A stretch of 28,490 bases of DNA from a virus. Its lineage: Duplodnaviria > Heunggongvirae > Uroviricota > Caudoviricetes. This document shows, piece by piece, positions 1 to 28,490 of the stretch (the stretch's first letter is position 1; the number at the start of each line of letters is the position of its first letter). The DNA is taken from IMG/VR virus record IMGVR_UViG_2585427739_000003; one strand, given 5' to 3'. The notes below the pieces were generated by a model, which saw only the letters and a list, made by a program, of their open reading frames with translations, was not told the origin of the DNA and searched no databases. Both the position numbers and the translations under genes were made by a program.

Positions 1-219
1 TGCGAAGCAGCGCCCATACCCGACGATAACCATACGTGGGCAGCTCTCCGATAACATGGTGTATACGGAGAAGCACATCCGTATCATCAGTGTGACGACC
101 GCGGCGGCCATCCATCCAGTCATCGGTTCGTCTGAGAATGACGTGCAACTGCGCACGCGACACCCGGAGACAACGGCTGACTAAGCTTACTCCCCATCCC
201 CGGGCAATAAGGGCGCGTG
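1..219 (-). CDS. insD: IS2 transposase OrfB (InsD), N-terminal part only, cut by the window edge
   Basis: Minus-strand translation gives [38 protein letters not shown]..., matching InsD from memory. An A-AAA-AAG slippery heptamer sits at the InsC/InsD overlap as expected for IS3-family frameshifting. Confidence 0.8.
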
Positions 220-552
220 CGCTATCCACTTTTTTGCCCGTCCATATTCAACGGCTTCTTTGAGGAGTTCATTTTCCATCGTTTTCTTGCCGAGCAGGCG
301 CTGGAGTTCTTTAATCTGCTTCATGGCGGCAGCAAGTTCAGAGGCAGGAACAACCTGTTCTCCGGCGGCGACAGCAGTAAGACTTCCTTCCTGGTATTGC
401 TTACGCCAGAGAAATAACTGGCTGGCTGCTACACCATGTTGCCGGGCAACGAGGGAGACCGTCATCCCCGGTTCAAAGCTCTGCTGAACAATTGCGATCT
501 TTTCCTGTGTGGTACGCCGTCTGCGTTTCTCCGGCCCTAAGACATCAATCAT
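187..552 (-). CDS. insC: IS2 transposase OrfA (InsC), 121 aa
   Basis: ORF track 187..597 contains [41 protein letters not shown]...; start set at the internal Met to give the 121-aa InsC. Confidence 0.9.
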
Positions 553-640
553 CTGTTCTCCAATGACTAGTCTAAAAACTAGTATTAAGACTATCACTTA
601 TTTAAGTGATATTGGTTGTCTGGAGATTCAGGGGGCCAGT

Positions 641-1141
641 CTAATACAGCCCTGTGGCCTCCAGATTATCCAGATAGAGATTCTGACCGTGACGCCACCA
701 GTCATCCCCGCGATGAAAATCCGGCATCTCAATCCCCGCCAGATGATAAGCATCCCGGAACAGCGTGTAACAGTCCGTCACCCCGTGCTCAAAGCGCCGC
801 CCGGTGAGATGCGGCACACAGCGGAACTTATGAATCGCCCCCCGGCAGACCAGCCACCACGGCAAATCACTCTGCACCTGCAGCCGCCGGTCAGCCTCAC
901 TCAGCCAGGGCAGACCACCGGGGTGGCTGTGGACCAGCGCCACAATCTCACCCTGCATTTCTGCCTGCAGCCAGTCCTCCGGCGACATCCGGAAATACGC
1001 CTCCGGCTCACCGGAGATATTCACGCAGGGAAAATATCTTTCCCCCTCCGGTGTTCTCACCACGAAGCCGCACGACTCTGCTGGCGCACATCGCCGGGCG
1101 TGCGCCAGAATCGCTGATTCTGTCTCTGTCATGGGATTCAC
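641..1141 (-). pseudogene. K: Lambda-like tail assembly protein K, C-terminally truncated by the IS2 insertion
   Basis: 166-aa ORF MNPMTETESAILAHARRCAPAESCGFVV...HSHPGG resembles lambda K (JAB/MPN-type). The reading frame ends exactly at the IS2 terminus, whose terminal bases supply the stop codon. Confidence 0.75.
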
Positions 1142-1836
1142 TGCGAAAGTTTGTTAATGGAAAGGAAGCCGCCAAAGTTGCCGACGTTATTGCGAAACTT
1201 ACAGCCGCTCAGGCACTTGCTGCATTTATCCTTCGTGATATCGGACGTCGGCTGATCATATTCATCCGCTACCGCCGGACCGTGATAACCGCACTCATCA
1301 CCGCGATAGGTCCAGGTGCAGGTGTTGGCCAGCATGATACGTCCCGGAAAAACGGCACCGTCCGTTTCCGTCGGCGTGGACAGTACAAAAGAGGCACTCA
1401 CCGCGCTCAGTTCGCTGCACTGCTCGATGCGCCAGCGGCTGATCACCTCCTGCTCCGGATCGGCGTCACTGTTTCCGTTGACGAAGTTCACCGCATCCAG
1501 AAAACGGGCGTAAACCTTACGCCGGACCACCGTTCCGCCGACCAGACTCTGCAAGTCTTCCGCCATCCCGGTGACCATGCCGTACAGATTAGAGACTTTA
1601 AGCGTTGGCCTTGCACTGGCTCCTTTGCCGTTCATCTCAAATCCGCTTCCCTGAATGGGATAAGCCTGATACTGCCGCCCCTGCCAGGTGACTGGTTCAC
1701 CTTTTTCGTTCTGCTCATTACAGAAGAAATAACGTTCTCCGCCGACCTCTGTCAGATCAATTTCCCAGAGCACGACCAGCGCGGATTGCTCCGTTTTAGT
1801 GCACTCATTGAGTGTTTCCTGCTGTATATCCTGCAT
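1138..1836 (-). CDS. L: Minor tail protein L
   Basis: 232-aa ORF resembling lambda L, with start/stop overlaps to K and M in lambda gene order. Confidence 0.85.
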   Translation of the reverse strand: MQDIQQETLNECTKTEQSALVVLWEIDLTEVGGERYFFCNEQNEKGEPVTWQGRQYQAYPIQGSGFEMNGKGASARPTLKVSNLYGMVTGMAEDLQSLVGGTVVRRKVYARFLDAVNFVNGNSDADPEQEVISRWRIEQCSELSAVSASFVLSTPTETDGAVFPGRIMLANTCTWTYRGDECGYHGPAVADEYDQPTSDITKDKCSKCLSGCKFRNNVGNFGGFLSINKLSQ

Positions 1837-5757: not shown

Positions 5758-6132
5758 AACCTCGCCGGCATCACTGATCAATTCCAGAGACTGCCGAAGA
5801 AGCCGCGCATGCACCGGGCCATACACGGCAATCACCTGTTCACGATCATCCTCTGAAAATACGGGTTGCAGTCCGGTATCACACAGAACATCAATGAACA
5901 GTTCAACATCTGCCTCCAGATTTCGGCGGGCGCGCTCCGCAACGGATAACGGTGTCTCATCATCTTTTGCTTTAACGATCTCCTGCCAGCGCAACCAGGC
6001 TTCTGCAGAAGGTTCCCGTAACACAACCGTTGCTCCCTCCCATTCAGGCACATCAACGGTTTTATGGCGAAACCCCGACATCGTTGCCAGTGCCAGATTA
6101 CGGATATTTTTAGTCATCACATCCATCCTCAT
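5746..6132 (-). CDS. Tail assembly chaperone (lambda G-like)
   Basis: 128-aa ORF directly upstream of the tape measure, ending EVKKK* over the slippery site. Confidence 0.7.
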   Translation of the reverse strand: MRMDVMTKNIRNLALATMSGFRHKTVDVPEWEGATVVLREPSAEAWLRWQEIVKAKDDETPLSVAERARRNLEADVELFIDVLCDTGLQPVFSEDDREQVIAVYGPVHARLLRQSLELISDAGEVKKK

Positions 6133-6836
6133 TAACTGACGGTTACAGTGCAGGAAGTGGAGGTCACTTTGTTAACCGGGCTCGCTGAATCAGAAATCTC
6201 GCAGGTATACGCACCGGCATCACCGGATGCTGCTGATGCCTTACTGAACGTTGCCGCCGTCTGTCCGGAAACAGGAGAACCACCTTTTTTCCAGGCATAA
6301 GAATAAGGCGGCACACCACCCACAGCCTCAACCGCCATTTCAAGTTTCGCTCCGGAAGCAACCCGCAGCGTGCTTTTTAAATCGACCCTCACTTTCAGCG
6401 GCTCTGTCGTCAGCACAGGCTTACCTTTCAGGCGCAGAGAAAACGTTGCAGCCACAACACCATTGGTTCCTGCAGACCAGGTATGCTGACGCACCTCTGC
6501 CATAAAGGTAAATCCGTTGCCTGACGGAAAAATAACTTTAAAGCCATACGTGGTGTCATTGTCATAGGCACTGCGCAACGCGTTCTGGGCAGCATTCAGA
6601 TAAAAGTTGCCTGACATGGAAATCTCTGAAGCAGCCCCAAGACCGTTAATATTTTCCTGCTCAACAGAACACAGCGTGGTGACATCAATATCCTGCTTTT
6701 GTCCTGCGGTAAACTGCACCTCTTTGATTGTACAGCTCAGGCCAAGATAGCTGGCAGAATCCAGGGTTTCTGCTGTTACCGGTGCAGACGAAATCATAAT
6801 TTTCGTCAGTTGCGAACGCTCAAAATTAGAGGACAT
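6132..6836 (-). CDS. Major tail tube protein (lambda V-like) with a C-terminal Ig-like domain
   Basis: 234-aa ORF with AGGAGA ribosome-binding site; the C-terminus (LKVRVDLKSTLRV...GGVPPYSYAWKKGG...YTCEISD) looks like a bacterial Ig-like fold, as in lambda V. Confidence 0.8.
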   Translation of the reverse strand: MSSNFERSQLTKIMISSAPVTAETLDSASYLGLSCTIKEVQFTAGQKQDIDVTTLCSVEQENINGLGAASEISMSGNFYLNAAQNALRSAYDNDTTYGFKVIFPSGNGFTFMAEVRQHTWSAGTNGVVAATFSLRLKGKPVLTTEPLKVRVDLKSTLRVASGAKLEMAVEAVGGVPPYSYAWKKGGSPVSGQTAATFSKASAASGDAGAYTCEISDSASPVNKVTSTSCTVTVS

Positions 6837-6852
6837 ACTCGTCTCCTGAAAA

Positions 6853-6876
6853 TAAAAAAACCCGCCAGCGGCGGGG
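6853..6876 (-). terminator. Terminator-like hairpin plus T-tract between the tail completion gene and the major tail gene
   Basis: Minus strand reads CCCGCCGCTGGCGGG followed by TTTTTTT; plus strand AAAAAAACCCGCCAGCGGCGGG. Confidence 0.45.
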
Positions 6877-6896
6877 GGGTAAAATCATTAATGACC

Positions 6897-7241
6897 TCAG
6901 GCTATTACCTGGAATTCAAGCGTGGCTCTGCTCAGACGGGAGTCAGGATCATAACCCTGCGTTTTAGAAATAACGGAGGGTGCCAGTTTTCTTACCGCAT
7001 CAAGCGCCTGCTCACGAATATTATCTGCGTCATCAGGTACTGTCGCCCAGACATCGATCTGCACGGTAATTCTGGATTCAGCCTGCCCATCAAGCACATC
7101 AGATACCGTGTCAGACACCACAGAAAACACCAGCCACGGCGGAGATACCGCAGGCTTTCCCTCCGTCAGCGGGACCACATAAGGATAAACCTGTCCTCCG
7201 GCCAGCTGAGACAACAGGGAATACAGTGTGTCCTCCCTCAT
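6897..7241 (-). CDS. Tail completion/terminator-like protein
   Basis: 114-aa ORF positioned immediately before the major tail gene; assignment is by position and size only. Confidence 0.5.
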   Translation of the reverse strand: MREDTLYSLLSQLAGGQVYPYVVPLTEGKPAVSPPWLVFSVVSDTVSDVLDGQAESRITVQIDVWATVPDDADNIREQALDAVRKLAPSVISKTQGYDPDSRLSRATLEFQVIA

Positions 7242-7687
7242 TTACTTAAGACCTCATCAATAGCCTGATTCATTCGCTGTATGGCAACCTGCGCCGCCAG
7301 CTCCTCTGTCGTATCGAAAGCCTGGCGAATGAATGGATGCGCGGGCATGTTTATCGTTCCCAGCTCCACAAAGCGCCAGTAAAATGCATTTCGGGGATCG
7401 CTGGCTTTCATGCTGTTATCACTGTTTCCGGTTCGCAGGTTCCGTCCGCGAATGTGGACACCCGAGATAATTTCCCCCCGACGCTTTGAACGCTGAGTGA
7501 GAACAACCACATTTTTCTTCAGTTTCCCGGTTCGCTCCGGCGCACGTTCAACAACTGCATCCCGCATAACTTCAGCACCGGCACGGGTGGCATCGCGCAG
7601 AACCTTATTGTTTTCTGCCCTGCTGAGCGTCTCCAAATCCCGTGCAATATCCGCCAGGCCGGAAAAATCAAGACTGAAATCCATCAC
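7238..7687 (-). CDS. HK97 gp10-family tail component
   Basis: 149-aa ORF in the head-tail joining block; family call is from memory of the sequence type. Confidence 0.55.
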   Translation of the reverse strand: MMDFSLDFSGLADIARDLETLSRAENNKVLRDATRAGAEVMRDAVVERAPERTGKLKKNVVVLTQRSKRRGEIISGVHIRGRNLRTGNSDNSMKASDPRNAFYWRFVELGTINMPAHPFIRQAFDTTEELAAQVAIQRMNQAIDEVLSK

Positions 7688-8022
7688 ACATTCCCCTTCA
7701 GACTGCAGAGTATTTCAAGCCGGGTAGCGCGTGCATCCGGTATTGGTGGACCTTCTATACCCAGAATGGCCCCTTTAAATGCACCGGTCAGCACTTTCAG
7801 ACGTGAAGTCGCTGTCACATCGCGCCGGAATCTCATCCAGACTCTGACCGTAGCCTGAGCGGTTTCTGCTCCGTCTGAGATTATCTCCCTCCCGCTGATA
7901 CCCTTAACTTCTGCCCATACGGTAGCTCCCTCCGTCACCGTCTCCACCGGATGCCCTGACGGAGAGCGGGCGGTGGTGACATTCAGAATAATTACGCGAT
8001 CACGTAATCTGCCCGCCTGCAT
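7684..8022 (-). CDS. Head-tail adaptor / head closure protein
   Basis: 112-aa ORF between the gp6-like and gp10-like genes, overlapping both neighbours. Confidence 0.55.
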   Translation of the reverse strand: MQAGRLRDRVIILNVTTARSPSGHPVETVTEGATVWAEVKGISGREIISDGAETAQATVRVWMRFRRDVTATSRLKVLTGAFKGAILGIEGPPIPDARATRLEILCSLKGNV

Positions 8023-8030
8023 GTCTCCTC

Positions 8031-8348
8031 CTACAAAGGAATAAAACGATAAGGCTCCAGCAGAGAAGAAAAACCAAACGGGACTGGTGCCTTGCTGACA
8101 TCTGAGGAATTTTCCCGGTTTTCGTACCAGTGCCCGACCAGCAACATGAGCGCCAGCAAAACATCATCAGCTATAAGCACCCCTTCAGGATCACCTTCCG
8201 GCACCGTCTCCTCATAAAGCTTACGGTTGATAAAATTTTCTGCCTTGCGGCAGGCAGCCCGGAAATACAGCATCAGTAACTCATCATCAGTTGCATCATC
8301 TGTATCAATACGGCACTGCGCCCTGAGTTTTTCCACTATTGCTGCCAT
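8031..8348 (-). CDS. gp6-like head-tail connector protein
   Basis: Start moved to the internal Met (MAAIVEKLRAQ...) because it is preceded by an AGGAG ribosome-binding site and lies downstream of the post-capsid terminator. Confidence 0.6.
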   Translation of the reverse strand: MAAIVEKLRAQCRIDTDDATDDELLMLYFRAACRKAENFINRKLYEETVPEGDPEGVLIADDVLLALMLLVGHWYENRENSSDVSKAPVPFGFSSLLEPYRFIPL

Positions 8349-8381
8349 CAGAAACTCCTGCCCGCAACACTGTGCGGGCAT

Positions 8382-8404
8382 AAAAAAACCGCGTCGGCGC
8401 GGTC
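8382..8404 (-). terminator. Rho-independent terminator after the major capsid gene
   Basis: Minus strand reads ACCGCGCCGACGCGGT followed by TTTTTTT. A second hairpin (CCCGCA...TGCGGG, about 8361-8378) follows it. Confidence 0.6.
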
Positions 8405-8424
8405 TGTAACTGAACAACGAGTGG

Positions 8425-9642
8425 TTATTTGCCAGTGAGCGCCTTGATGGCTGCCACATCTTCCAGCACACAGTCAAAACGATGGAAAGCCAGAAATGCC
8501 ACCTGATCAAACTCAGCATAACGCTCAACCAGACGTTTCAGTTCCATATAAGTAACGCGGCGAATGATAAAGCGGTTGAAATCCCCCAGGAAAATGAATT
8601 TTTTTCCAGTACCAATCCCGTCAATAGCCTGATCAATAACATAAGGGATCCCCAGCACAGTAGCCGGCGTACCGCCTGCAATATCCGGCAGCCATAACGG
8701 GCGTTTCTGTCCATCCTCCATCTCTTCAATAGTCTGCAATGTGGCATCATTGAATGCCCAGCGGTATTTCGGCCCACCACGATATGCCGGATCAATGGCA
8801 TGTTTCAGGGCATTCATTTCTTTCCAGGTGAAAGCGGCAGAGGCTGCAGTCTGGATGGTTCCCGTCACCGACGCTGCCAGCCCTTTTGGCTGTAACGGTG
8901 ATCCCGTTCCGATCCCCTGAACCAGATATTTTGCCTCTCCACGACCAATACGCTGGGCAATACGGTTTGCCAGATAAGATTCAATATCCACCCCACTGTC
9001 CTGGAGCAGCTCATTGGACACACGAATTATTTTTGATGACAGCTTTTTAGCCCCCAGAATAGCGGTCCCGAACGTCACATCCTGTTCCGTTGCGGCTGTA
9101 TTTTCCGCCAGCAGTTCGCCCTCTTCAGTCGTGCCATCAGACGTTGACCAGGTGATATCCTGCCCGGTTGATGTGGTCAGAAGTTGCGCCACACTGGCAA
9201 TCCCGCCATAAGCCTTCATGGTGTCAATGATTTTGTTACGCATCTGCGTGGGCACCGTATATCCGCCCTGAGAATCCGTTGTTACACTCTGAGCCCGCAG
9301 TTCACGCATCAGATTACGCTCTTCAGCATTCAGTTCTGCAAATCCGGCACGCAGAAAACGGTTAAATGCCGCAGCACGCTTCTCTTCCACCGCCTTTTTC
9401 CCGTTCTCCGCCTCATTATTCTGGCGCTCTTCCGGCCCGGACTCATCCACATATGCCTGATCCTGACGGCGCAACTCTTCTTCACGGGCGATTTGCTCAT
9501 CCAGCGCATCCAGCTCAGCTTTCGCCCTGTTCCACTCTGCCCGTTGCTCATCAGTCCATGCGTTATCACCAATTTTTTCATGCAGTGCACGCATATCCTT
9601 TGCAATGGTGTTTCGTTTTTGCTTCATCTCATGAAGTTTCAT
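8425..9642 (-). CDS. HK97-family major capsid protein
   Basis: 405-aa ORF with a coiled-coil N-terminal delta domain, located after the prohead protease. Confidence 0.85.
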   Translation of the reverse strand: MKLHEMKQKRNTIAKDMRALHEKIGDNAWTDEQRAEWNRAKAELDALDEQIAREEELRRQDQAYVDESGPEERQNNEAENGKKAVEEKRAAAFNRFLRAGFAELNAEERNLMRELRAQSVTTDSQGGYTVPTQMRNKIIDTMKAYGGIASVAQLLTTSTGQDITWSTSDGTTEEGELLAENTAATEQDVTFGTAILGAKKLSSKIIRVSNELLQDSGVDIESYLANRIAQRIGRGEAKYLVQGIGTGSPLQPKGLAASVTGTIQTAASAAFTWKEMNALKHAIDPAYRGGPKYRWAFNDATLQTIEEMEDGQKRPLWLPDIAGGTPATVLGIPYVIDQAIDGIGTGKKFIFLGDFNRFIIRRVTYMELKRLVERYAEFDQVAFLAFHRFDCVLEDVAAIKALTGK

Positions 9643-9656
9643 CGTCAGTAGTATCC

Positions 9657-10256
9657 TTATGCATTAAGAAGGGTCAAAAGGCGCTCACGCGCCATTCGTT
9701 CATTAACAGCTTTCTTCAGCGCACCACTCGCCCGCGCTTCCTGCCAGGCTTTCATTGAGCGGACACCGGAGTCTGCGTCCTGATAGGCCGGATATGTCAC
9801 CGGGCTGACGTCATACAGACGAGAAATGCGCGTGATTTCCCGGATAACAATCCCCTCGTCGTCTTCATACCAGCTCTCTCCGTCACGGGCGACACGAAAC
9901 GCGAACGAGGACTGGTTAATGTCACCACGCAACATTGGAGACAGCACCAGGTCACAAATAGTCGGAGTATCCGGTGCAACAATGTCATAACGTAAACCGC
10001 GTTCATCCACCGACAATGACAATGTGCCGGCAGAACTTCGTCCGAGAATGAAATTAGGATCATGATTAAACAAGCCACGTACATCATCATTCAGTACATC
10101 ATCAAAAGCCCCCGGCTTGATGATTTCACGAAATCCCCACAGAGGTTCTGAACGACTGTTAAATACCGAGCCATACCCCAGAATGTGGGTCGGGGCATTA
10201 TCATATTGTTCCGCCCGCACCTCCCCGCTGTAACAGCGCGTTTCACGGTCATTCAT
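9657..10256 (-). CDS. HK97-family prohead protease
   Basis: 199-aa ORF between portal and capsid genes. Confidence 0.8.
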   Translation of the reverse strand: MNDRETRCYSGEVRAEQYDNAPTHILGYGSVFNSRSEPLWGFREIIKPGAFDDVLNDDVRGLFNHDPNFILGRSSAGTLSLSVDERGLRYDIVAPDTPTICDLVLSPMLRGDINQSSFAFRVARDGESWYEDDEGIVIREITRISRLYDVSPVTYPAYQDADSGVRSMKAWQEARASGALKKAVNERMARERLLTLLNA

Positions 10257-11475
10257 CGTTCTTTTCCTCTTTGCCTTTCGTATCTTTAAAGTTATTCAAC
10301 GGATTTGCTGCATTTACGCTGACCAGCATTTCATCCAGACCGTCAACCGGGTTCATATCCTCAAATGCCCTGGCTTCATTCCGACTCATCCAGCCATCTG
10401 TAATGGCAAAGTGATAGAACTGCGCACGCTCCTGTGGGGTCCCACGGAGCAACCCCGTGAGGTTGAAACGAACGTAATACCCGGCAGCCCGTTCTGTACG
10501 GGTAAACAGGCGACGGTTAAGCTCCTGCTCCCAGTTCGCAACCCAGGGCATCATCGTGTAGCGAACAAACTGAATCGCCTGCTGCGTAATATTCGAAAAT
10601 GTGGCTTTTTCCAGGTCATTAATCATGTGCGCCGGGACATTAAAAATCCCTGCAATCATCGACCTGTTCAGCTTGGTCATATCAATGATCTGAGCATCCA
10701 CCGGAGAAACTGTCAGAGCGCGGTAATCCAGTTGCGCAGGCAACAGCATGGTTTTATTTTCCTGGCTGCGAAGCGCTGTCACCGCCCGCTGCCACATATT
10801 TTTAAGCCTGCCCCAGCTCTGTTCGTTCAGTTCATTTTTCACAGAAATAATACCGGCAGGACGGGCATTACCGTTAAAAAAGGCGCTGGTATACTGCTGG
10901 CCACTCATTCCCATACCAATGGTTTCAGCATGCTGCATGATCGGGCTCAGTCCCATTTTCTGATTGTTTCCCAGCGCCCTGATATGGATCATGTCGTCCG
11001 GACTTACCGCAAATGCACCCTCTTCGTTATACACCCCGTAAGTATGACGCCCACCGGTGTTAAGTAACGTGGTTTCCCATGGCATACAGCATTCAAGGCT
11101 GGTAACCTCTCCACGACGATTACGTTTTACCCACGTATAACCATTGCCCCACCCCAGCACATGACGCTGCTTCAGTTCCCGCCACTTATAGCTGGTCTGC
11201 CAGGCATTAGGTTCATCATGAACGAGCCAGAACAACGGATGATCGCGTGCAGGCTGAACATGCTCATTCGTTTTTCGCATCACATGCAGGGGCATCTGAG
11301 CCACACTGGATGAAATAACATAAATACAGGCATAGACAGCAGCCAGCTTCATGGATGTTTCCGGACTGACATACACATCCCGGGCAAAAATATTATCCGT
11401 CTCAGCGGCCTCTCCGGTTACCGGAACCGAGGGATTTTCCAGAGGCTCACTGCGAAACAGAGCATCAAGAAGCAT
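10249..11475 (-). CDS. Portal protein (HK97 family)
   Basis: 408-aa ORF following the terminase large subunit. Confidence 0.85.
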   Translation of the reverse strand: MLLDALFRSEPLENPSVPVTGEAAETDNIFARDVYVSPETSMKLAAVYACIYVISSSVAQMPLHVMRKTNEHVQPARDHPLFWLVHDEPNAWQTSYKWRELKQRHVLGWGNGYTWVKRNRRGEVTSLECCMPWETTLLNTGGRHTYGVYNEEGAFAVSPDDMIHIRALGNNQKMGLSPIMQHAETIGMGMSGQQYTSAFFNGNARPAGIISVKNELNEQSWGRLKNMWQRAVTALRSQENKTMLLPAQLDYRALTVSPVDAQIIDMTKLNRSMIAGIFNVPAHMINDLEKATFSNITQQAIQFVRYTMMPWVANWEQELNRRLFTRTERAAGYYVRFNLTGLLRGTPQERAQFYHFAITDGWMSRNEARAFEDMNPVDGLDEMLVSVNAANPLNNFKDTKGKEEKNDE

Positions 11476-11605
11476 GTTTTCTCCTCATGGACACCACCAG
11501 TGCATAAAGCAGCAACAAACAGCCCGACAGCATCAGAGACGCTGGCAGACCTGCATACAGATAAACGCCAGCAGTGAGCAAACCGAAACCGATCAGCCCG
11601 GTCAT
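11465..11605 (-). CDS. Possible small hydrophobic protein (about 46 aa) between terminase and portal
   Basis: Hand-translated ORF MTGLIGFGLLTAGVYLYAGLPASLMLSGCLLLLYALVVSMRRKHAS, overlapping the portal start. Not in the ORF track (under 60 aa) and no ribosome-binding site checked. Confidence 0.3.
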   Translation of the reverse strand: MTGLIGFGLLTAGVYLYAGLPASLMLSGCLLLLYALVVSMRRKHAS

Positions 11606-11622
11606 ATCAGTAATAAGCTGTT

Positions 11623-13380
11623 TCACAGAATTAACAGGTCCTCATCAGGATCAAGCGTGGACAGAAAGTCATTCACGCCCCCGCCATTTACCAGAAAGCG
11701 GCTCATGGCCGTAAAAAGCGCAACAGGGCCGTCGATTTTGGCTTCAGGCGTGGATTTATTCGGGAAGATGTTGTCGTTTTTGTCCGGTTTTACCGTAACG
11801 TTAGACATCATCCAGTTCATGACCGGATGATTGCTGTGATGGAAACGCCCGGCATAAACCAGTGATTCCGTTTCCTTCATGGCCTCTGACAGATTGCGGA
11901 CCGTCTGCGGAACCTCCACCAGCGGTATCCCTTCTTCAGCCAGTGCCAGGCTGAACTGCATTGCGCTCCACGGGTCAAATCCCAGTTCCCTGAGGTTTTC
12001 ACCGCCAATCCATTCCAGTAAGTCACTTTTTATCTGAGCATGATCGATAACATCACCATCCGTCAGGATGAGCTTATCCATCTCCGCCCACTTCCGGTAA
12101 AGTTCTGCCTGCTGCCGCGAGCATCGCTCCAGCCGTCCTTCCGGAAGCCAGAATTTAAAATCAGCATGAACATGTCCGTTATCGGTTCGCCAGAGTTTTG
12201 CCGCCGCACAGATATCAATCTTATGAGCAAGGTCGACGCCGACCCACATGGGATATGTTTTCAGCTCATGTTGTGGAGCAATGTATTCGCACTTCTCCCA
12301 CTTAATCATATCCATCCAGGCAGATTCGGCAGTGACCCACACATTCATGTGTTTGGTAAAAAAATTCACCCGCGCAGAGACCTGCTCCTTCGCTTTTTTC
12401 GCCAGACGACGCAGATCATCCCAGCGTTTACAGATGCCCAGGCCAGGATTCGCTTTCTGCCAGACCGTTTCATCAAACGGATCATCTCCCTCATCGAGCG
12501 TGTAAATGATCGCAAAGTAGGAGTCGTCTTTTACCGCGCCCTCCACGTCGCTGTTATAGCCTCGCAATACCTTAATGGCGTAATCGCGCTGCTCGTAGCA
12601 AATCCCTTCCTTGTTAAAGCCAGCCGTGGTGATGCCAAATAACAGAGACTGCAGACGGGCACCGGTTGCCGTTTCCAGAACGTCCCACACGTCACGGGTT
12701 TTATGAGCATGCAGCTCATCAATAATGGCGCAGTGGATGTTCAGACCGTCCAGGTTGTTTGCATCCGAGGAAAGCGGTTCAAATTTTGATGCGCTCTGCT
12801 CCTGGTAAATCGCCAGCTTGTTGAAATCAAACAACCGCCCGAGTGTCGACCGGGCTTTTCTGACCATATTTTTGGCGTCTTCAAACACAATTCTGGCCTG
12901 GTCACGCGTGGTTGCGGCTGAATACACCTCAGCCCCGCCTTCACCATCTGCCCCCGTCATATACAGACCGATACCCGATGACAGGGTTGATTTTGCGTTT
13001 TTACGGGCAACTTCGTTGTATGCTGTCCGGAACCGGCGCACCATCACCGGGCGTCCACTGCCATCGCTGCGCATGACAACTTCCCCGGTTTCTTCATTCA
13101 CCAGCGGAATGACAAAACCAAAAATATTAATGAGGATAAACACATGCCAGTCCATCAACTCAATGGGCTGACCTGCCAGCGCCCCTTTCACATGGGGTAC
13201 AAATTTGTAGAAATTAAGGATGTGCTGTGCACGGGGTTCACTGAAATAAATCCCCCGCTCTTCGCCGTACTTCAGATCATCAAGAAAACGCTGGCAGGCC
13301 AGACGGACAAATTCGCCAGCAACAATTTCTCCTGCAACAACACGTTCGGCGTAGCGGATCCCGTCAGCCACTTTTGCCAT
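11623..13380 (-). CDS. Terminase large subunit
   Basis: 585-aa ORF downstream of the small subunit, with stop/start overlap to it. Confidence 0.9.
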   Translation of the reverse strand: MAKVADGIRYAERVVAGEIVAGEFVRLACQRFLDDLKYGEERGIYFSEPRAQHILNFYKFVPHVKGALAGQPIELMDWHVFILINIFGFVIPLVNEETGEVVMRSDGSGRPVMVRRFRTAYNEVARKNAKSTLSSGIGLYMTGADGEGGAEVYSAATTRDQARIVFEDAKNMVRKARSTLGRLFDFNKLAIYQEQSASKFEPLSSDANNLDGLNIHCAIIDELHAHKTRDVWDVLETATGARLQSLLFGITTAGFNKEGICYEQRDYAIKVLRGYNSDVEGAVKDDSYFAIIYTLDEGDDPFDETVWQKANPGLGICKRWDDLRRLAKKAKEQVSARVNFFTKHMNVWVTAESAWMDMIKWEKCEYIAPQHELKTYPMWVGVDLAHKIDICAAAKLWRTDNGHVHADFKFWLPEGRLERCSRQQAELYRKWAEMDKLILTDGDVIDHAQIKSDLLEWIGGENLRELGFDPWSAMQFSLALAEEGIPLVEVPQTVRNLSEAMKETESLVYAGRFHHSNHPVMNWMMSNVTVKPDKNDNIFPNKSTPEAKIDGPVALFTAMSRFLVNGGGVNDFLSTLDPDEDLLIL

Positions 13381-14009: not shown

Positions 14010-14360
14010 TCAATTGATGCGTTCGCGCGCTGTTTTTGCTTTATGACAGGGCCAGCACAGACTCTGCAGGTTACTGTCTGCATCCGTGCCACCATGAGCT
14101 TTCGGAATGATGTGGTCCACAGTTCTGGCTTCAACGGCTCTCCCATTGCGCAGGCAGTTCTGACACAGATGATTATCACGCTTCAGTATGCGCGCACGTA
14201 TGGCATCCCATTTCGAGCCATAGCCACGCTGGTGGCGGCTCAGTCCGCGTTGATGCTGTACCCATCCTTCGCCACGATGTTTATCGCAGTAACCAGAACT
14301 GTCTGTGGTTGTACCTGCACATCCACGCTTACGGCAGGCGCGTGGGATTCGTGGGGGCAT
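14010..14360 (-). CDS. HNH endonuclease (terminase-associated)
   Basis: Cys-rich protein with DHIIPKAHGGTD...N...LCWPCH HNH motif. Start moved to the internal ATG at 14360, which has a GGAG ribosome-binding site. Confidence 0.8.
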   Translation of the reverse strand: MPPRIPRACRKRGCAGTTTDSSGYCDKHRGEGWVQHQRGLSRHQRGYGSKWDAIRARILKRDNHLCQNCLRNGRAVEARTVDHIIPKAHGGTDADSNLQSLCWPCHKAKTARERIN

Positions 14361-14885
14361 ATGTACTCCAATGAAGAAGCCACCGACATAGCCTCCTCCA
14401 TTCATAGTGAAACTATTTTCATCTACCCAGTAATGAATTCTTTGTAGAGTTGTGATCAATACAACTCACTAATGGAGAGGCTTTTTCCACACGTTGGGCA
14501 AGTTTCCTGTTTGATTTACTGGACACTATAGAAGGACAGAATGCCTTCATCACTCGAATAACATCAATTAAGGAGGTTCAACATGTTTCATTCCACAAAT
14601 CATCAGGCTGTAATTATGGCTGCATCAGCTTGTGCCACAGACCTTTTCCGCTTCACTTTGAGCCTGATTCATTTCTACCTGACCGGCTCGCCTCTATCTT
14701 TTTAATCCCCGCTTTATCCAAATTGCATTGCCAGAATGCCGACAACAGACTGACATTCAAATCCTGACTACCTCCGATAGGCTGAGCATCCACCTATATA
14801 GTTTTAATTTTCATCAATCCATTTAACTATCGTTTAATTGTTGTCACATAGGATTCTGCCGTTTTTAACAATGCAGGATAATAAG

Positions 14886-15179
14886 ATGAAAAAAATGTTG
14901 TTTTCTGCCGCTCTGGCAATGCTTATTACAGGATGTGCTCAACAGACGTTTACTGTTGGAAACAAACCGACAGCAGTAACACCAAAGGAAACCATCACCC
15001 ATCATTTCTTCGTTTCGGGAATTGGACAGGAGAAAACTGTTGATGCAGCCAAAATTTGTGGCGGCGCAGAAAATGTTGTTAAAACAGAAACCCAGCAAAC
15101 ATTCGTAAATGGATTTCTCGGTTTTATTACTTTAGGCATTTATACTCCACTGGAAGCGCGTGTGTATTGCTCACAATAA
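14886..15179 (+). CDS. bor: Bor outer-membrane lipoprotein
   Basis: MKKMLFSAALAMLITGCAQQTFTV...LEARVYCSQ closely resembles lambda Bor, with lipobox LITGC. On the strand opposite the late genes, next to Rz, as in lambda. Confidence 0.9.
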   Translation: MKKMLFSAALAMLITGCAQQTFTVGNKPTAVTPKETITHHFFVSGIGQEKTVDAAKICGGAENVVKTETQQTFVNGFLGFITLGIYTPLEARVYCSQ

Positions 15180-15210
15180 TTGCATGAGTTGCCCATCGAT
15201 ATGGGCAGCT

Positions 15211-15687
15211 CTATCTGCACTGCTCATTAATATACTTCTGGGTTCCTTCCAGTTGTTTTTGCATAGTGATCAGCCTCTCTCTGAGGGTGAAATAATCCCG
15301 TTCAGCGGTGTCTGCCAGTCGGGGGCTGGTTGCATTATCCACGCCGGAGGCGGTGGTGGCTTCACGCACTGACTGACAGACTGCTTTGATGTGCAACCGA
15401 CGACGACCAGCGGCAACATCAGCGCGCAGAGTTTCATTTTCAGCTTTCGCATTGGCTAATTCTCTCGAGTACTTTGCATCGAGTGCAGCAACATCACGCT
15501 GACGCTGCTGCATGTCAGCGATGGTGGCGATCGACTGCTTCAGCTCACTGACTTTTTTATCACGCTGTTCTTTGTAGGCGATGGCGTTATCACGGTAATG
15601 ATTGACCGCCCACGACAGGCAGACGATGATGCAGATAACCAAAGCATAAATAATCGCGGCGACTCTGCTCACTGCTCTATCCCCCAA
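15211..15687 (-). CDS. Rz: Rz inner-membrane spanin
   Basis: Near-identical to lambda Rz over most of its length (...[25 protein letters not shown]...[13 protein letters not shown]). Confidence 0.9.
15270..15452 (-). CDS. Rz1: Rz1 outer-membrane spanin lipoprotein, embedded in the Rz +1 frame
   Basis: 60-aa ORF ...[31 protein letters not shown]... matching lambda Rz1, with lipobox and proline-rich segment. Confidence 0.85.
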
Positions 15688-16202
15688 CAGGCTAATGCGC
15701 TTTCCTGGTCACGACGAATAACCTGTCCATAGCAGTTATTTGAACGTATGCGGCAATCGCGCCCACCATCTTTTATCCACCAGCGAATCGCCTCGCATGC
15801 GCCCTTACGATCACCGGCATTCAGCCGCTTATAAAACGTCGACGGGAAACACTTACCGGGGCCAATGTTATAGGGACAGAATGACGCTATACCCGCTTTT
15901 TGTGGTTCGGTCAGTGGTACTTTAATATTGCGCTCCACCCATGCCAGCGCCTTATCACGCTCAATGGCGTTGACCTGGTCGCATTTTTCCTTCGACAGTT
16001 TCATACCGGGAAAAACGGGTTTTCCATCCACCATCGTGGCCCCCCGACAGATGGTCCAGATGCCGGACCCATCGCGGTATGCCGTTGTGTGGTTACCTTC
16101 TTTTTCATCCAGAAACTGGTCGAGAATATCAGGCGCGGGCGCACCGACGGCAATCAGTGCCAGAACGGCAGCCGACAGGCCGTATCTGATTTTTGCGTTC
16201 AT
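15669..16202 (-). CDS. SAR endolysin (T4-type lysozyme with an N-terminal signal-arrest-release segment)
   Basis: N-terminal Gly/Ala-rich weakly hydrophobic segment ([17 protein letters not shown]) followed by an E...D...T catalytic triad motif ([17 protein letters not shown]). Confidence 0.85.
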
Positions 16203-16265
16203 GGATATTTATCAGGATTTATCGGTTTCTGCCCACGGACAGGTTTATCTGTTCCGGTCAGTGAC

Positions 16266-16616
16266 TTAAGGTTGTGATTCCGGAGGAGTCTTCAGAGAAC
16301 CAGTAATTCTTCCCGGTAGCTTTCCTTTGTAGGTTATCCATACATTCTGCGCCTCTAAAATTACGGGGCGCTTTTCCGGCGACTGCTCATCCCCTTCACA
16401 TAACCCGGCAGCAACATCCAGGAAGACCTGTCTGATGCTCCTTCTGGCTGCTGCCTCATAAAACTCCAGCGCGGCACCTTCAACACGGTCCAGCGAGATG
16501 TCCAGGTCAAAAATTTCACCGTCAAAGCGTTTTTTGTCCCGTAACGCTAAAGTTACCGTAACTTTATTCTCAAAATTGCGGATCCCTTTCACAATCAGTT
16601 CATAGTTTTGAGTCAT
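16266..16616 (-). CDS. Uncharacterised protein encoded between holin and endolysin (YdfR-like)
   Basis: 116-aa ORF in the same position as ydfR between holin and lysozyme in E. coli cryptic prophage Qin; family assignment is from memory. Confidence 0.5.
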   Translation of the reverse strand: MTQNYELIVKGIRNFENKVTVTLALRDKKRFDGEIFDLDISLDRVEGAALEFYEAAARRSIRQVFLDVAAGLCEGDEQSPEKRPVILEAQNVWITYKGKLPGRITGSLKTPPESQP

Positions 16617-16620
16617 TGAA

Positions 16621-16836
16621 TTACTCTCCCCGTGCCGCCTTACGACGGTCCTCTCTGATTTTGAAATACAGGTTAGTCAGATATGTCAGCAGCCCAAACA
16701 GCAGACTCCCCAGCACGCCTATTGCCGCCCACTGAGACGGGGAAACCCTGTCCAGCAACTGCAGGAACCAGTAGCCCGTTCCCACCGCTGACGTGGTGTA
16801 TGACACACCTGTTGTGATTTTTTCCATCTGGTCCAT
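16621..16836 (-). CDS. Class II pinholin (phage 21 S-like) with a dual-start motif
   Basis: [71 protein letters not shown] resembles S21. Met1 and Met4 give the holin/antiholin pair. Confidence 0.85.
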
Positions 16837-17143
16837 ACCCCGTCTCCCGTTATCCGGAAGCTGACAACAATAAAAAAGCCACCAGTTAACTACTGATGGC
16901 TCTGATAACTCATGCAAGCGTCTCAGACGATCCACTGACACTACCGGTGAGTTTAACGATACCTTCCATTTGACTGGCTCACTTTTTATGATGATGCCGG
17001 TACATTTATCTCCAGCACCAGACTTTCTATCTCAACGCCATACGTTGCATTTTTGGTAATATCCGTCAGCGTCAGTGCATTTAGTCCCACTGCCAGACTG
17101 TCCTTTATGGCCTAGAATGCCGGGCCAGTACGATGACGTAGTA

Positions 17144-17332
17144 TCACTCCGGCTCAGTTGCACCACTGACCACCACATCACCTTCTGCTGCAATCGCCTG
17201 CATCAGGGTATAAGGGGTTATGGCCACCGGACTACCAAACGGCTGCCAGCCCTCTTTCAGTTTATGTGTCAGCTTTTCCGCAAGATCTGACGGCGGCGCC
17301 GCCCTGACAACATCATAGTGTTTAAATGCCAT
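17144..17332 (-). CDS. Hypothetical small protein upstream of the holin
   Basis: ORF track 17144..17347; start placed at the internal Met MAFKHYDVV... Function unknown. Confidence 0.45.
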   Translation of the reverse strand: MAFKHYDVVRAAPPSDLAEKLTHKLKEGWQPFGSPVAITPYTLMQAIAAEGDVVVSGATEPE

Positions 17333-17591
17333 GGTTCTTTCCACCATCTGAAAAATAATTCTTTAAAATACCTGACATGTAATACAGAAAAAACACAAAA
17401 CCATACCTTAAATAAAAACCTGATTATCAAGCAGATATGCATGGATAAACTACAAGACGAGATATAAACCACCCTGTATTTAAATAAACAATAAACAACA
17501 TCAGAAAAATAATTCTGCTCTATGGTTTAATTCAAAAATATCATTTATACTTTTCAGAACATCACCAGCAAGGCATAAACAAGGAAAGTAA

Positions 17592-17927
17592 ATGAAGTGG
17601 ATTGTGATTGATACAGTTATCCAGCCATCATGCGGAATATCTTTTTCAGTCATATGGAGTAAAATAAAATTAATAATCTGGTATCAATCGGATGCTTTCT
17701 TACCTCCTGAAAGTATATTTACACTGACTCACACAGGCATCATGCTCAATAACAAAGTGCTACCTGTAACCATTTACAACGTAGTACCATTCAATAAAAC
17801 ATTCTGGAATTTAATCAAAAACAGCCAGGAATGCCCTACAAATACAGATAACGTAATGAATGAATGCTTTAATAACCGTTGCACTCTGCAAATATGTCCT
17901 TATGGACTAAAACAACAAAGTCCATAA
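17592..17927 (+). CDS. Hypothetical protein in an AT-rich cargo island, Cys-rich C-terminus
   Basis: 111-aa ORF with AAGGAAAG ribosome-binding site before the ATG, AT-rich upstream region with promoter-like hexamers, and a perfect hairpin downstream. It is transcribed against the late operon. Confidence 0.5.
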
Positions 17928-18374
17928 GGAGTTTACTCACATCTGACAAAATCAATATAAACAGCCCCTCCGGAGAGGGGCTGGAGAGTGGCGCTATGTG
18001 CCATTGCATGGTGCCGGGTGCCTCCCGGTGAATTCAGTACCAGCACCTGAATTCGCGATTATCCCATATACCTACTCGCTGATTGCCCCTCCGCACAGGG
18101 GGATTCACCATGCCAGTTTCTTTTAACAAACTCCCCGCAAACCAGACAACAGTCAACCGCCTGAATTGTGAAGTATTTAAAAATTTCTCCCGCTAACTGA
18201 TACCCGGCTAACAGTCTGGCGTTTTCTTTTTCAGCAACGGGAAAGCAACAACCACCACCCCCGCCACCAGCACACCGTCAGCCAGCACTGACATTATCCG
18301 GCTGCTGCAATGCCACTCACAAAAACAGTAAGCAATCACTTTTTACCGTAACAAGTGATAATCCAGATATGTAT

Positions 18375-18728
18375 CTACCCCAGATGAGTAATCCGAAGTT
18401 CATCCATACCACAGGTACTGGCTATTCTGTTGTACTCCTGAACAAGAGCAAATAATTCTGAATTAGCAACCATGAACTCATCGCAAACCCTCTGTATAGC
18501 ATCACTATTCAGAATAATAACGTCTCTTCCCGAAAGACGATCAGGAGTACAGAACAAAACTGTCAAACGGCTGAAGGCCTTTGCTCGTCCTGCATTGACT
18601 ATATCAATACGCTGCCTAAGGATGAAACACCCCGACGCCTCATCAATATTCACTCTACCCACACCATATGAATGATAAATATTTAATGCTGAAAAAACCA
18701 TTAGACCGTATAACAAACACTCAATCAA
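18375..18728 (-). CDS. Hypothetical protein (weak gene model)
   Basis: 117-aa ORF with a TTG start and no convincing ribosome-binding site, in the position occupied by stx in Stx phages. Confidence 0.25.
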   Translation of the reverse strand: MIECLLYGLMVFSALNIYHSYGVGRVNIDEASGCFILRQRIDIVNAGRAKAFSRLTVLFCTPDRLSGRDVIILNSDAIQRVCDEFMVANSELFALVQEYNRIASTCGMDELRITHLG

Positions 18729-18841
18729 TACTTAACAGAACTTTTATTTTTGACAAACATAAAATATTTTCAACAATATCCTGAGCCAGGTATATTTCAG
18801 TATAAGGCTCTGCCGGAAGGAATCTGGAAGAATGAATATAG

Positions 18842-18915
18842 CGCGCTGTACTGGATTCGAACCAGTGACCGATTGCTTAGAAGGCAATTGCTCTGTCCGG
18901 CTGAGCTAACAACGC
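18842..18915 (-). tRNA. tRNA-Arg (anticodon UCU), 3' CCA not encoded
   Basis: Hand-folded cloverleaf: 7-bp acceptor stem GCGTTGT/ACAGCGC, GTTCGAATCC T-arm, anticodon loop CTTCTAA. Resembles the argN/argO tRNAs of lambdoid Stx phages. Confidence 0.75.
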
Positions 18916-19015
18916 TGAATACCGATAATGGACCGCCATCGGGGACCCGCCCCCGCACCAACAACCCTGTTATCGTGTCGTCTGCTCTTCCTGATAAGCT
19001 AATGGCGGTTTGTGA

Positions 19016-19091
19016 TGGTGGCCCTTGCTGGATTTGAACCAGCGACCTGGCGATTATGAGTCGCTCGCTCTCACCACTGAGCTAAAGGGCC
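19016..19091 (-). tRNA. tRNA-Ile2-like (anticodon CAU), with encoded CCA
   Basis: GGCCCTTTAGCTCAGTGGTGAGAGCGAGCGACTCATAATCGCC...GGTTCAAATCC...GGGCCACCA resembles E. coli tRNA-Ile2 (ileX) and the ileZ tRNA of Stx phages. Confidence 0.8.
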
Positions 19092-19120
19092 GGGAGCAGA
19101 ATAATAACGGTCCGTAATTA

Positions 19121-19147
19121 ATTCCGCAATAAAAAACCCGCTCGGCG
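19121..19147 (-). terminator. Candidate tR' terminator downstream of the late promoter
   Basis: Minus strand reads AACCCGCCGCCGAGCGGGTT followed by TTTTTTATT, about 90 nt downstream of the Q stop. Confidence 0.5.
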
Positions 19148-19149
19148 GC

Positions 19150-26925: not shown

Positions 26926-26970
26926 TTTTACAACATCGCATTGACTTGAAGGGTAACTCTTGTTACCTTA
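26926..26970 (+). promoter_or_regulatory. Left operator / early-left promoter region
   Basis: Third copy of the operator palindrome, GTAACTCTTGTTAC (about 26953-26966), overlapping a TTGACT -35-like hexamer, upstream of the plus-strand early genes. Confidence 0.5.
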
Positions 26971-27150
26971 ACAGCATACCAACCCACCCCGCCCCACAGA
27001 ATGCAGGGCAATACTTCGAGTTACCAGGCAGTGGTCAGGGGTTAAGTAGCCAGCCCGAGGCGTAAGAACATGACGGCAGGGTTCAACTTTAATAACTATG
27101 CAGCAGGTTTTTGTTCCGCTACCCCGGCGTTAAGGGGAAATGAGGTCAGC

Positions 27151-27306
27151 ATGGATACTATCGATCTTGGCAACAGCGAATCTCTGGTATGTGGCGTGTT
27201 CCCCAACCAGGACGGTACGTTCACCGCGATGACGTATACCAAAAGCAAAACGTTTAAAACCGAAAATGGTGCCCGTCGCTGGCTGGAAAGAAACTCAGGT
27301 GAGTGA
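27151..27306 (+). CDS. ydfA: YdfA-like small protein, 51 aa
   Basis: Internal ATG with GAGG ribosome-binding site gives MDTIDLGNSESLVCGVFPNQDGTFTAMTYTKSKTFKTENGARRWLERNSGE, first gene of a dicB-type operon. Confidence 0.6.
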   Translation: MDTIDLGNSESLVCGVFPNQDGTFTAMTYTKSKTFKTENGARRWLERNSGE

Positions 27307-27307
27307 T

Positions 27308-27436
27308 ATGGATTTCGACACAATCATGGAAAAGGCTTACGAAGAATACTTCGAAGGTCTTGCCGACGGCGAAGAAGCTCTCAGCTTCAACGAATTTAAA
27401 CAGGCGCTTTCCAGTTCGGCAAAATCTAACGGCTGA
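27308..27436 (+). CDS. ydfB: YdfB-like small acidic protein, 42 aa
   Basis: Hand-translated MDFDTIMEKAYEEYFEGLADGEEALSFNEFKQALSSSAKSNG. Not in the ORF track. Confidence 0.5.
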   Translation: MDFDTIMEKAYEEYFEGLADGEEALSFNEFKQALSSSAKSNG

Positions 27437-27465
27437 TAAGCGAAACAGCACCGCGAGGAATCAGT

Positions 27466-27684
27466 ATGCAGAAACGAGAACCCGTCATCATCGCGCCAGG
27501 CTATACCGATGATGAACTTTATGAGTGGATGCGCCAGAAAATTAATGCAGCGCAGGATCTGAAATGGGCTAATGAAGCCAGGGCTAAGCAGGCTGAAAAT
27601 CTGTCCGCTCTGGAGCAGGATATCACCAATCTGGAAAAAGCAGCGGCATTAAGCATTGCCAGAATGATTACATACCCGCGTTAA
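27466..27684 (+). CDS. ydfC: YdfC-like protein, 72 aa
   Basis: ORF with GAGGA ribosome-binding site; size and position match ydfC of the Qin dicB operon. Confidence 0.6.
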   Translation: MQKREPVIIAPGYTDDELYEWMRQKINAAQDLKWANEARAKQAENLSALEQDITNLEKAAALSIARMITYPR

Positions 27685-28024
27685 TAGATAACCAACGAAG
27701 CTAAGGTTGGTAATTAAGGAGTTCTCCACGGGTGAGGTGGAGTGCGTGCGCCGGACACGGGTGAGCATCCGGCACTGACAGTTTACTGAAAGGATATTTC
27801 CCTGAAAAGTCAGACCATAACGCGAAAGCGCACGGCGAGGTAGCTGGTTCATAGATAGCCTGTCGTTAAATTTTCGTCGACCGTGCGCTTCCGGTTGTGG
27901 CAACCCGCGAAATGGCGCGGCGGTAAGTATGGCGGGGGTATTCCTTCCCCGTTGAGGACACCGGGTTGTCAGGTTGACCATACGCTTAAGTGACAACCCC
28001 GCTGCAACGCCCTCTGTTATCAAT

Positions 28025-28082
28025 TTTCTGGTGACGTTTGGCGGTATCAGTTTTACTCCGTGACTGCTCTGCCGCCGTTTTT
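28025..28082 (+). ncRNA. dicF: DicF-like small RNA (division-inhibiting antisense sRNA)
   Basis: TTTCTGGTGACGTTTGGCGGTATCAGTTTTACTCCGTGACTGCTCTGCCGCCGTTTTT matches the DicF sequence as I recall it, ends in a hairpin plus T-run, and lies just upstream of dicB after a 340-bp non-coding leader. Confidence 0.7.
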
Positions 28083-28251
28083 AAAGTGAATTTTGTGATG
28101 CGGTGAATGCGGCTAAGCGCACGCGGAACAGTTAAAACCAAAAACAGTGTTATGGGTGGATTCTCTGTATCCGGCGTTAATTGTTAACTGGTTAACGTCA
28201 CCTGGAGGCACCAGGCACTGCATCACAAAATTCATTGTTGAGGACGCGATA

Positions 28252-28440
28252 ATGAAAACGTTATTACCAAACGTTAATACGTCTGAAGGTTGTTTTGAAA
28301 TTGGTGTCACTATCAGTAACCCTGTATTTACTGAAGATGCCATTAACAAGAGAAAACAAGAACGGGAGCTATTAAATAAAATATGCATTGTTTCAATGCT
28401 GGCTCGTTTACGTCTGATGCCAAAAGGATGTGCACAATGA
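28252..28440 (+). CDS. dicB: DicB cell-division inhibitor, 62 aa
   Basis: MKTLLPNVNTSEGCFEIGVTISNPVFTEDAINKRKQERELLNKICIVSMLARLRLMPKGCAQ, recognised as DicB; internal start within ORF track entry 28147..28440. Confidence 0.85.
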   Translation: MKTLLPNVNTSEGCFEIGVTISNPVFTEDAINKRKQERELLNKICIVSMLARLRLMPKGCAQ

Positions 28441-28490
28441 ATTCAGCATTTGCGCTTGTTCTGACAGTTTTTCTTGTTTCCGGAGAGCCA
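28437..28490 (+). CDS. ydfD: YdfD-like protein, N-terminal fragment cut by the window end
   Basis: ATG overlaps the dicB stop (ATGA); translation begins MNSAFALVLTVFLVSGEP... Confidence 0.55.
   Translation, partial: MNSAFALVLTVFLVSGEP

Follow-up and report, generated by a model that had tools for sequence, protein, structure and literature searches.

The window analysed here is a stretch of 28,490 nucleotides, namely the first 28,490 bases of the draft contig JOQS01000053.1 (28,759 bp; assembly GCA_000714215.1, E. coli 5-172-05_S1_C3); positions 14333-28490 of the contig are identical to the same positions of the window. The prophage in it is of a Qin-like lambdoid type, with an HK97-type head and a lambda-type tail, integrated between potB and potC, and its cargo comprises dicB, DicF, hokD/sok and bor/iss. 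At the left edge the contig begins inside an IS2 element, which abuts a truncated tail assembly gene K (Table 1). The intact tail tip gene L fixes the gene order as M-L-K of a lambda-type tail operon, the tape measure gene H of which is also found in the window.

IS2, a member of the IS3 family, is 1331 bp long and carries orfA (HTH) and orfB (DDE/rve), which are fused via a programmed -1 frameshift. Positions 1-643 of the window match the IS2 annotated by RefSeq in NZ_AP027829.1 at 640/643 bases, and the canonical left terminus is found at 643-631 on the minus strand (5'-TAGACTGGCCCCC). The element and the tail operon share one direction of transcription, and the orfA of IS2 is intact. In E. 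coli genomes IS2 gives thousands of matches, with a median of 6 matching places per genome.

The last K codon before the element is codon 163 (TAT, 646-644), directly followed by the TAG at 643-641. The statement of the first-pass annotation that the K frame ends exactly at the IS2 terminus, with the stop codon supplied by the element, is confirmed to the base. The product of this frame (K-N) is identical at 163/163 positions to residues 1-163 of the 247-residue K of the NT1F25 prophage, and at 158/163 to lambda K. In intact K, Pfam places Prok-JAB at residues 4-98 and NLPC_P60 at 111-224, which is the JAB plus NlpC/P60 layout that Iyer et al. (PMC1779556) reported for TAPK. The JAMM motif of the JAB/MPN domain is complete in K-N: E19, H68-S-H70, S78 and D81 (SEAD at 78-81). 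The insertion cuts the NlpC/P60 domain near its middle, leaving Cys121 (DCY) on K-N and His187 (NHAAIY) and His199/200 beyond the cut. A Pfam search of the K-N product gave Prok-JAB only, with no match to NLPC_P60. No single polypeptide holds the complete NlpC/P60 domain with its Cys, His and third polar residue; the gene is a broken member of its family and effectively a pseudogene. Neither the 163-residue nor the 166-residue form of the truncated K has a record under exact look-up. The longer form starts from a GTG at 1141 chosen by the ORF finder (166 aa); this is probably not the real start of K, and the ATG at 1132 is the likelier one, as the relatives are annotated from the ATG that matches it.

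Table 1. Features of the locus and of the surrounding prophage. Positions refer to the window, except in the last line.
Feature	Position	Strand	Remarks
Left 643 bp of IS2 (IS3 family)	1..643	-	begins at the left inverted repeat; window and contig start inside the element
Start of IS2 orfB	1 to about 190	-	continues past the window edge
IS2 orfA, InsC-type HTH transposase subunit, 121 aa	187..552	-	ATG at 552; Pfam HTH_Tnp_1, E 2.4e-19; from the ORF list
TAG stop of K-N, first three bases of the IS2 left end	641..643	-	CAG (Gln164) at this place in an intact relative
Target-site duplication, one copy	644..648		ATACA on the + strand, TGTAT in K sense; second copy after the IS2 right end
K-N, first 163 codons of tail assembly gene K	644..1132	-	start ATG 1132-1130; Prok-JAB, E 2.2e-14
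L, tail tip gene, 232 aa, intact	1138..1836	-	Phage_tail_L, E 1.8e-100; full length against 640R1; directly upstream of K
bor/iss	14886-15176
STnc100 sRNA	17953-18142
tRNA-Arg(tct) and tRNA-Met(cat)	18841-19091
Q homologue	19235-20056
sok	22087-22258
DicF	28026-28077
Lesion regions of the NT1F25 sister prophage	8961-12359, 19843-21056, 24138-27904		positions in the retrieved NZ_CP075472.1 stretch

The far side of IS2 and the uninterrupted gene

A simple insertion predicts a reciprocal reading frame on the other side of the element, composed of the IS2 right end, TGTAT and CAGGTG..., which runs over 86 codons (MYQVPLSS...TFV). Among 15 billion proteins exactly one record has this sequence, KEL57453.1 of E. 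coli 5-172-05_S1_C3 ('nlpC/P60 family protein'), and it is encoded on JOQS01000059.1, a contig of the same assembly as that of the window. The end of JOQS01000059.1 is formed by the last 329 bp of IS2, identical at 329/329 positions to the reference IS2 of NZ_AP027829.1 and including the C-terminal rve_3 part of orfB. The right terminus lies at 318-329 of the retrieved stretch; next to it come TGTAT and the remaining part of K. Both terminal inverted repeats are present (left, TAGACTGGCCCC...; right, ...GGGGCAAATCCA), and in K sense the two junctions, marked by slashes, read ...GGGCTGTAT / TAGACTGG...IS2...GCAAATCCA / TGTATCAGGTG.... After removal of IS2 and of one TGTAT copy, K is restored as a frame of 744 nt with 0 mismatches to the K of NT1F25. 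The element itself is assembled in two parts (643 + 329 = 972 of 1331 bp), and we infer that the two contigs are contiguous across the unassembled 359 bp in its middle.

Beyond K, JOQS01000059.1 carries I (215 aa), J (1132 aa), lom, stf (1007 aa), tfa, a methyltransferase gene and potB. I, J, lom, stf and tfa are called genes with lengths as in the relatives, and none of them is visibly disrupted. The other IS2 end, the 5-bp duplication and the remainder of K, which the earlier annotation had proposed to look for by extending the sequence, are all found on this contig. The annotation was also right to place the C-terminus of K and the genes of the tail tip outside the window; they are present in the prophage, on JOQS01000059.1, and are invisible in the window because the draft contig begins inside a repeated IS2.

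The K frame does not end naturally at codon 163, since intact relatives read on for 84 codons. K has 247 residues in NT1F25, in vB_EcoS-640R1 and in the re-sequenced lambda PV340536.1, and it also continues in most of the relatives' loci that cover the K region, as retrieved through neighbouring proteins. Look-ups via L and the major tail protein gave only long contigs of other strains; none of these has IS2 at K, and in nearly all of them K is called with 247 residues. None of the intact relatives examined ends K at codon 163, and at this locus no intact copy of K was seen.

Searches for the same event elsewhere gave the following. None of 5,426 complete E. coli genomes contains the exact IS2-K junction, nor do contigs representing one genome per species, IMG/VR viral contigs or JGI metagenome contigs, and the predicted reciprocal junction is absent from species-representative genomes. 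A homology search with the C-terminal fragment of K brought up cluster representatives alone, many of which are partial proteins, and the partner fragment was not among these.

The surrounding prophage and its sister copy

Compared with vB_EcoS-640R1, the late genes from TerS to L and K are full length with the exception of K alone. TerS aligns only over residues 16-165 of the 640R1 annotation, and the 160-residue ORF of the window corresponds to the call in relatives. The region of integrase, excisionase and exonuclease lies on yet other contigs, and other defects, or an earlier defectiveness of the prophage, may exist.

IS elements aside, the sister prophage of NT1F25 (NZ_CP075472.1) is nearly the same as the one in the window, with 2 SNPs between 644 and 7224 and no SNP over 7221-10624. 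The right 17.9 kb has 30 differences, of which 22 fall within the last 550 bp (27904-28454), around DicF and ydfC, a clustering that suggests a recombination boundary between mosaic segments. No difference is found over 25162-27904, a part that includes the LexA-family repressor (238 aa in NT1F25). Against vB_EcoS-640R1 the cro-like and repressor genes (25957-26878) show about 30-38% identity. Judged from these alignments, the repressor region represents another immunity module of a mosaic genome and not a mutated repressor. The "repressor change" that the first-pass annotation had counted as a sign of domestication dissolves on this comparison: the region is the same as in NT1F25, and the contrast with 640R1 is one between modules.

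The NT1F25 copy is of a nearly identical type, occupies the same potB/potC site and likewise shows decay via IS insertion. Its K is intact, but J has an internal stop, the portal gene carries ISEc23, and an IS3-family element sits between the gp10-like and gp17-like genes; the prophage studied here is without those lesions in the sequence seen and carries IS2 in K only. It is at an earlier stage of decay than the NT1F25 copy, and the same prophage is decaying through different IS hits in different strains.

As to the cargo, the STnc100 sRNA and the two tRNAs are situated upstream of the lysis genes, the sok antitoxin RNA lies beside hokD, and bor/iss is a lipoprotein gene; such small-RNA and accessory cargo is typical of Qin-type prophages. 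A 356-residue protein of the replication region (24333-25403) carries a rare variant and has a record on one contig only, JOQS01000053.1.

Predicted effect on tail assembly and alternative readings

The reading that we hold with high confidence is a single simple IS2 insertion at codon 163/164 of K, which splits the gene and leaves the prophage predicted to be without functional tails. IS2 transposed into this codon pair by a simple insertion with a 5-bp target duplication. One frame, K-N, comprises residues 1-163, ended by the TAG of IS2, with the whole JAB domain and the half of NlpC/P60 that bears Cys121. The other, K-C, is the 86-codon frame, made of a Met and residues 163-247 and carrying His187 and His199/200; its ATG is composed of the last A of IS2 and the TG of the duplicated target. 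Neither fragment has a complete NlpC/P60 catalytic centre. In all, IS2 provides the stop of K-N as well as an SD-like AGGGG and the A of the K-C ATG.

The lambda protein gpK is required for tail assembly (PMC12617516) and is not found in the virions (PMC12617516, PMC10721106). The K described here resembles it in its position between L and I (H-M-L-K-I-J) and in the JAB plus NlpC/P60 layout; the restored protein differs from lambda K at 10 of 247 positions. The gene here is split at codon 163, with no single product that has the whole NlpC/P60 domain. A defect in tail assembly is expected because gpK is required in lambda and K here is 97% identical to it. Upon induction the prophage would make DNA-filled heads and no functional tails, hence no infectious particles. 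The closest counterparts are the classical tail-defective amber mutants of lambda K, which also have a premature stop in K and are expected to give active heads and no functional tails. The ambers are point mutations, whereas the IS2 lesion is non-suppressible and could revert only through rare precise excision. By this analogy with lambda genetics, loss of K function and a tail-less phenotype are likely.

Late transcription in lambdoid phages is antiterminated by Q. The genes downstream of the element (I, J, lom, stf and tfa) are for this reason probably still transcribed, and their continued expression is probable on the same general grounds. The insertion looks recent, because the remnants of K are identical in every base to intact K and have gathered no further mutations; the hit was probably neutral or harmful.

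A split K might still work if K-N and K-C were both translated from the late transcript and associated into an active protein, so that tails were still made. The cut lies between the Cys-bearing and the His-bearing halves of NlpC/P60, an in-frame ATG is available at the IS2 right end (318-334 of the retrieved JOQS01000059.1 stretch) with AGGGG 7 nt upstream, the K-C frame is annotated as the protein KEL57453.1, and Q antitermination should, from general knowledge, carry late transcription through IS2. Yet the catalytic triad would have to be assembled from two chains encoded 1.3 kb of foreign RNA apart, a small papain-like domain is usually destroyed by splitting, and the ATG is a chance product of a target that starts with TG, the IS2 insertion in NZ_AP027829.1 forming none. 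We regard such complementation as improbable, and as distinctly improbable the fuller proposal that IS2 has made K into a two-gene split protein whose fragments reassemble and keep the prophage infectious. In a weaker version, the free JAB fragment could keep a separate activity on the ubiquitin-like gpI. That the rest of K and the I-J-lom-stf block were lost or moved by an IS2-mediated deletion or rearrangement might be thought from a window that shows nothing past IS2, and an E. coli genome has several copies of the element between which recombination can occur (median of matching places given above); the reading is nevertheless hardly tenable, as JOQS01000059.1 continues from the IS2 right end through the matching duplication and the exact rest of K to the genes from I to potB. 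A later inversion between IS2 copies is formally possible because the middle of the element is unassembled. Least probable of all is an assembly artefact in which an IS2 read path was wrongly joined to a K that is intact in the genome. This is a draft assembly with contigs ending in repeats, but both junctions sit exactly at the outermost nucleotides of IS2, with a 5-bp direct repeat of the target on either side, which is the signature of transposition and not of misassembly, and the assembly yielded no contig in which a K of this sequence is uninterrupted.

Domestication, meaning selection for the host to retain a disarmed prophage, the K lesion and the repressor change being steps on the way, had been suggested by the first-pass annotation and is here considered very unlikely. 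Genes of benefit to the host are carried (bor/iss, lom, hokD/sok, DicF and dicB), and the NT1F25 sister copy has also been struck by IS elements. The hits in the sister copies, however, lie in different genes and fit random decay, the repressor region is no different from that of NT1F25, and the IS2-in-K allele is absent from the 5,426 complete genomes. There is one visible lesion and no sign of a long residence in the defective state: what is left of K matches an intact gene at every base, and the remaining late genes have their full length. With a single lesion, unmutated K remnants and an immunity region identical to that of NT1F25, domestication is unsupported. Of the first-pass reading as a whole, the truncation of K by IS2 stands and the tail defect is likely; the absence of the downstream genes comes from the contig edge, and domestication lacks support.

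IS2 is known to make simple insertions in E. coli genes, prophage genes included, with the same canonical termini, 5-bp duplication and gene disruption, and its insertion in a prophage gene is an ordinary, already known kind of prophage damage. After one recent IS2 hit, the prophage of E. coli 5-172-05_S1_C3 can probably no longer produce infectious particles. Its tail-tip genes only seem to be lost, through a draft contig that ends in a repeat. Cases of this kind are routine in E. coli genomes, and this one matters chiefly for correct annotation: a contig break at an IS element can lead calls of prophage 'completeness' on draft assemblies astray, and to find the partner junction one can predict the chimeric ORF that an insertion would have created.

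An independent and fully assembled IS2 is present in the K gene of a different lambdoid prophage, in NZ_AP027829.1 (strain 2017.17.03CC), at 6051-7381 of the retrieved stretch with the duplication GTTAC (GTAAC in K sense). It has the same orientation, again brings the IS2 TAG into frame, and is closer to the start of K than the insertion described here by 45 nt. The two hits within 45 nt of K may reflect a regional preference or chance.

Length of K in lambda records

The lambda reference K is annotated with 199 residues, apparently because one base is missing from the reference sequence (J02459/NC_001416), which reads GGAGGC-TATTTCC against GGAGGCGTATTTCC; other records give 247 residues with a complete JAB domain. 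The place of the missing base is at about 1368 of the retrieved NC_001416.1 stretch, which corresponds to lambda coordinate about 14267. The 199-residue lambda K looks like an old sequencing error that has been carried into databases and into papers quoting '199 residues'. The idea that the N-terminal JAB part might be dispensable, given a lambda K of 199 residues, was dropped, as re-sequenced lambda encodes 247 residues. In OZ040347.1 (15701-16448 of the retrieved stretch) K is likewise called with 199 residues although the reading frame is already open from the customary MTETES start, a choice of the gene caller that mimics the lambda reference annotation. The re-sequenced lambda PV340536.1 (706-1449 of the retrieved stretch) was compared base by base, and the extra base is present. 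From a match of 273 bases to a query of 272 bases, it is presumed to be present also in LC730321.1, KT232076.1, DE3, the imm21/imm434 hybrids, HK629 and HK630.
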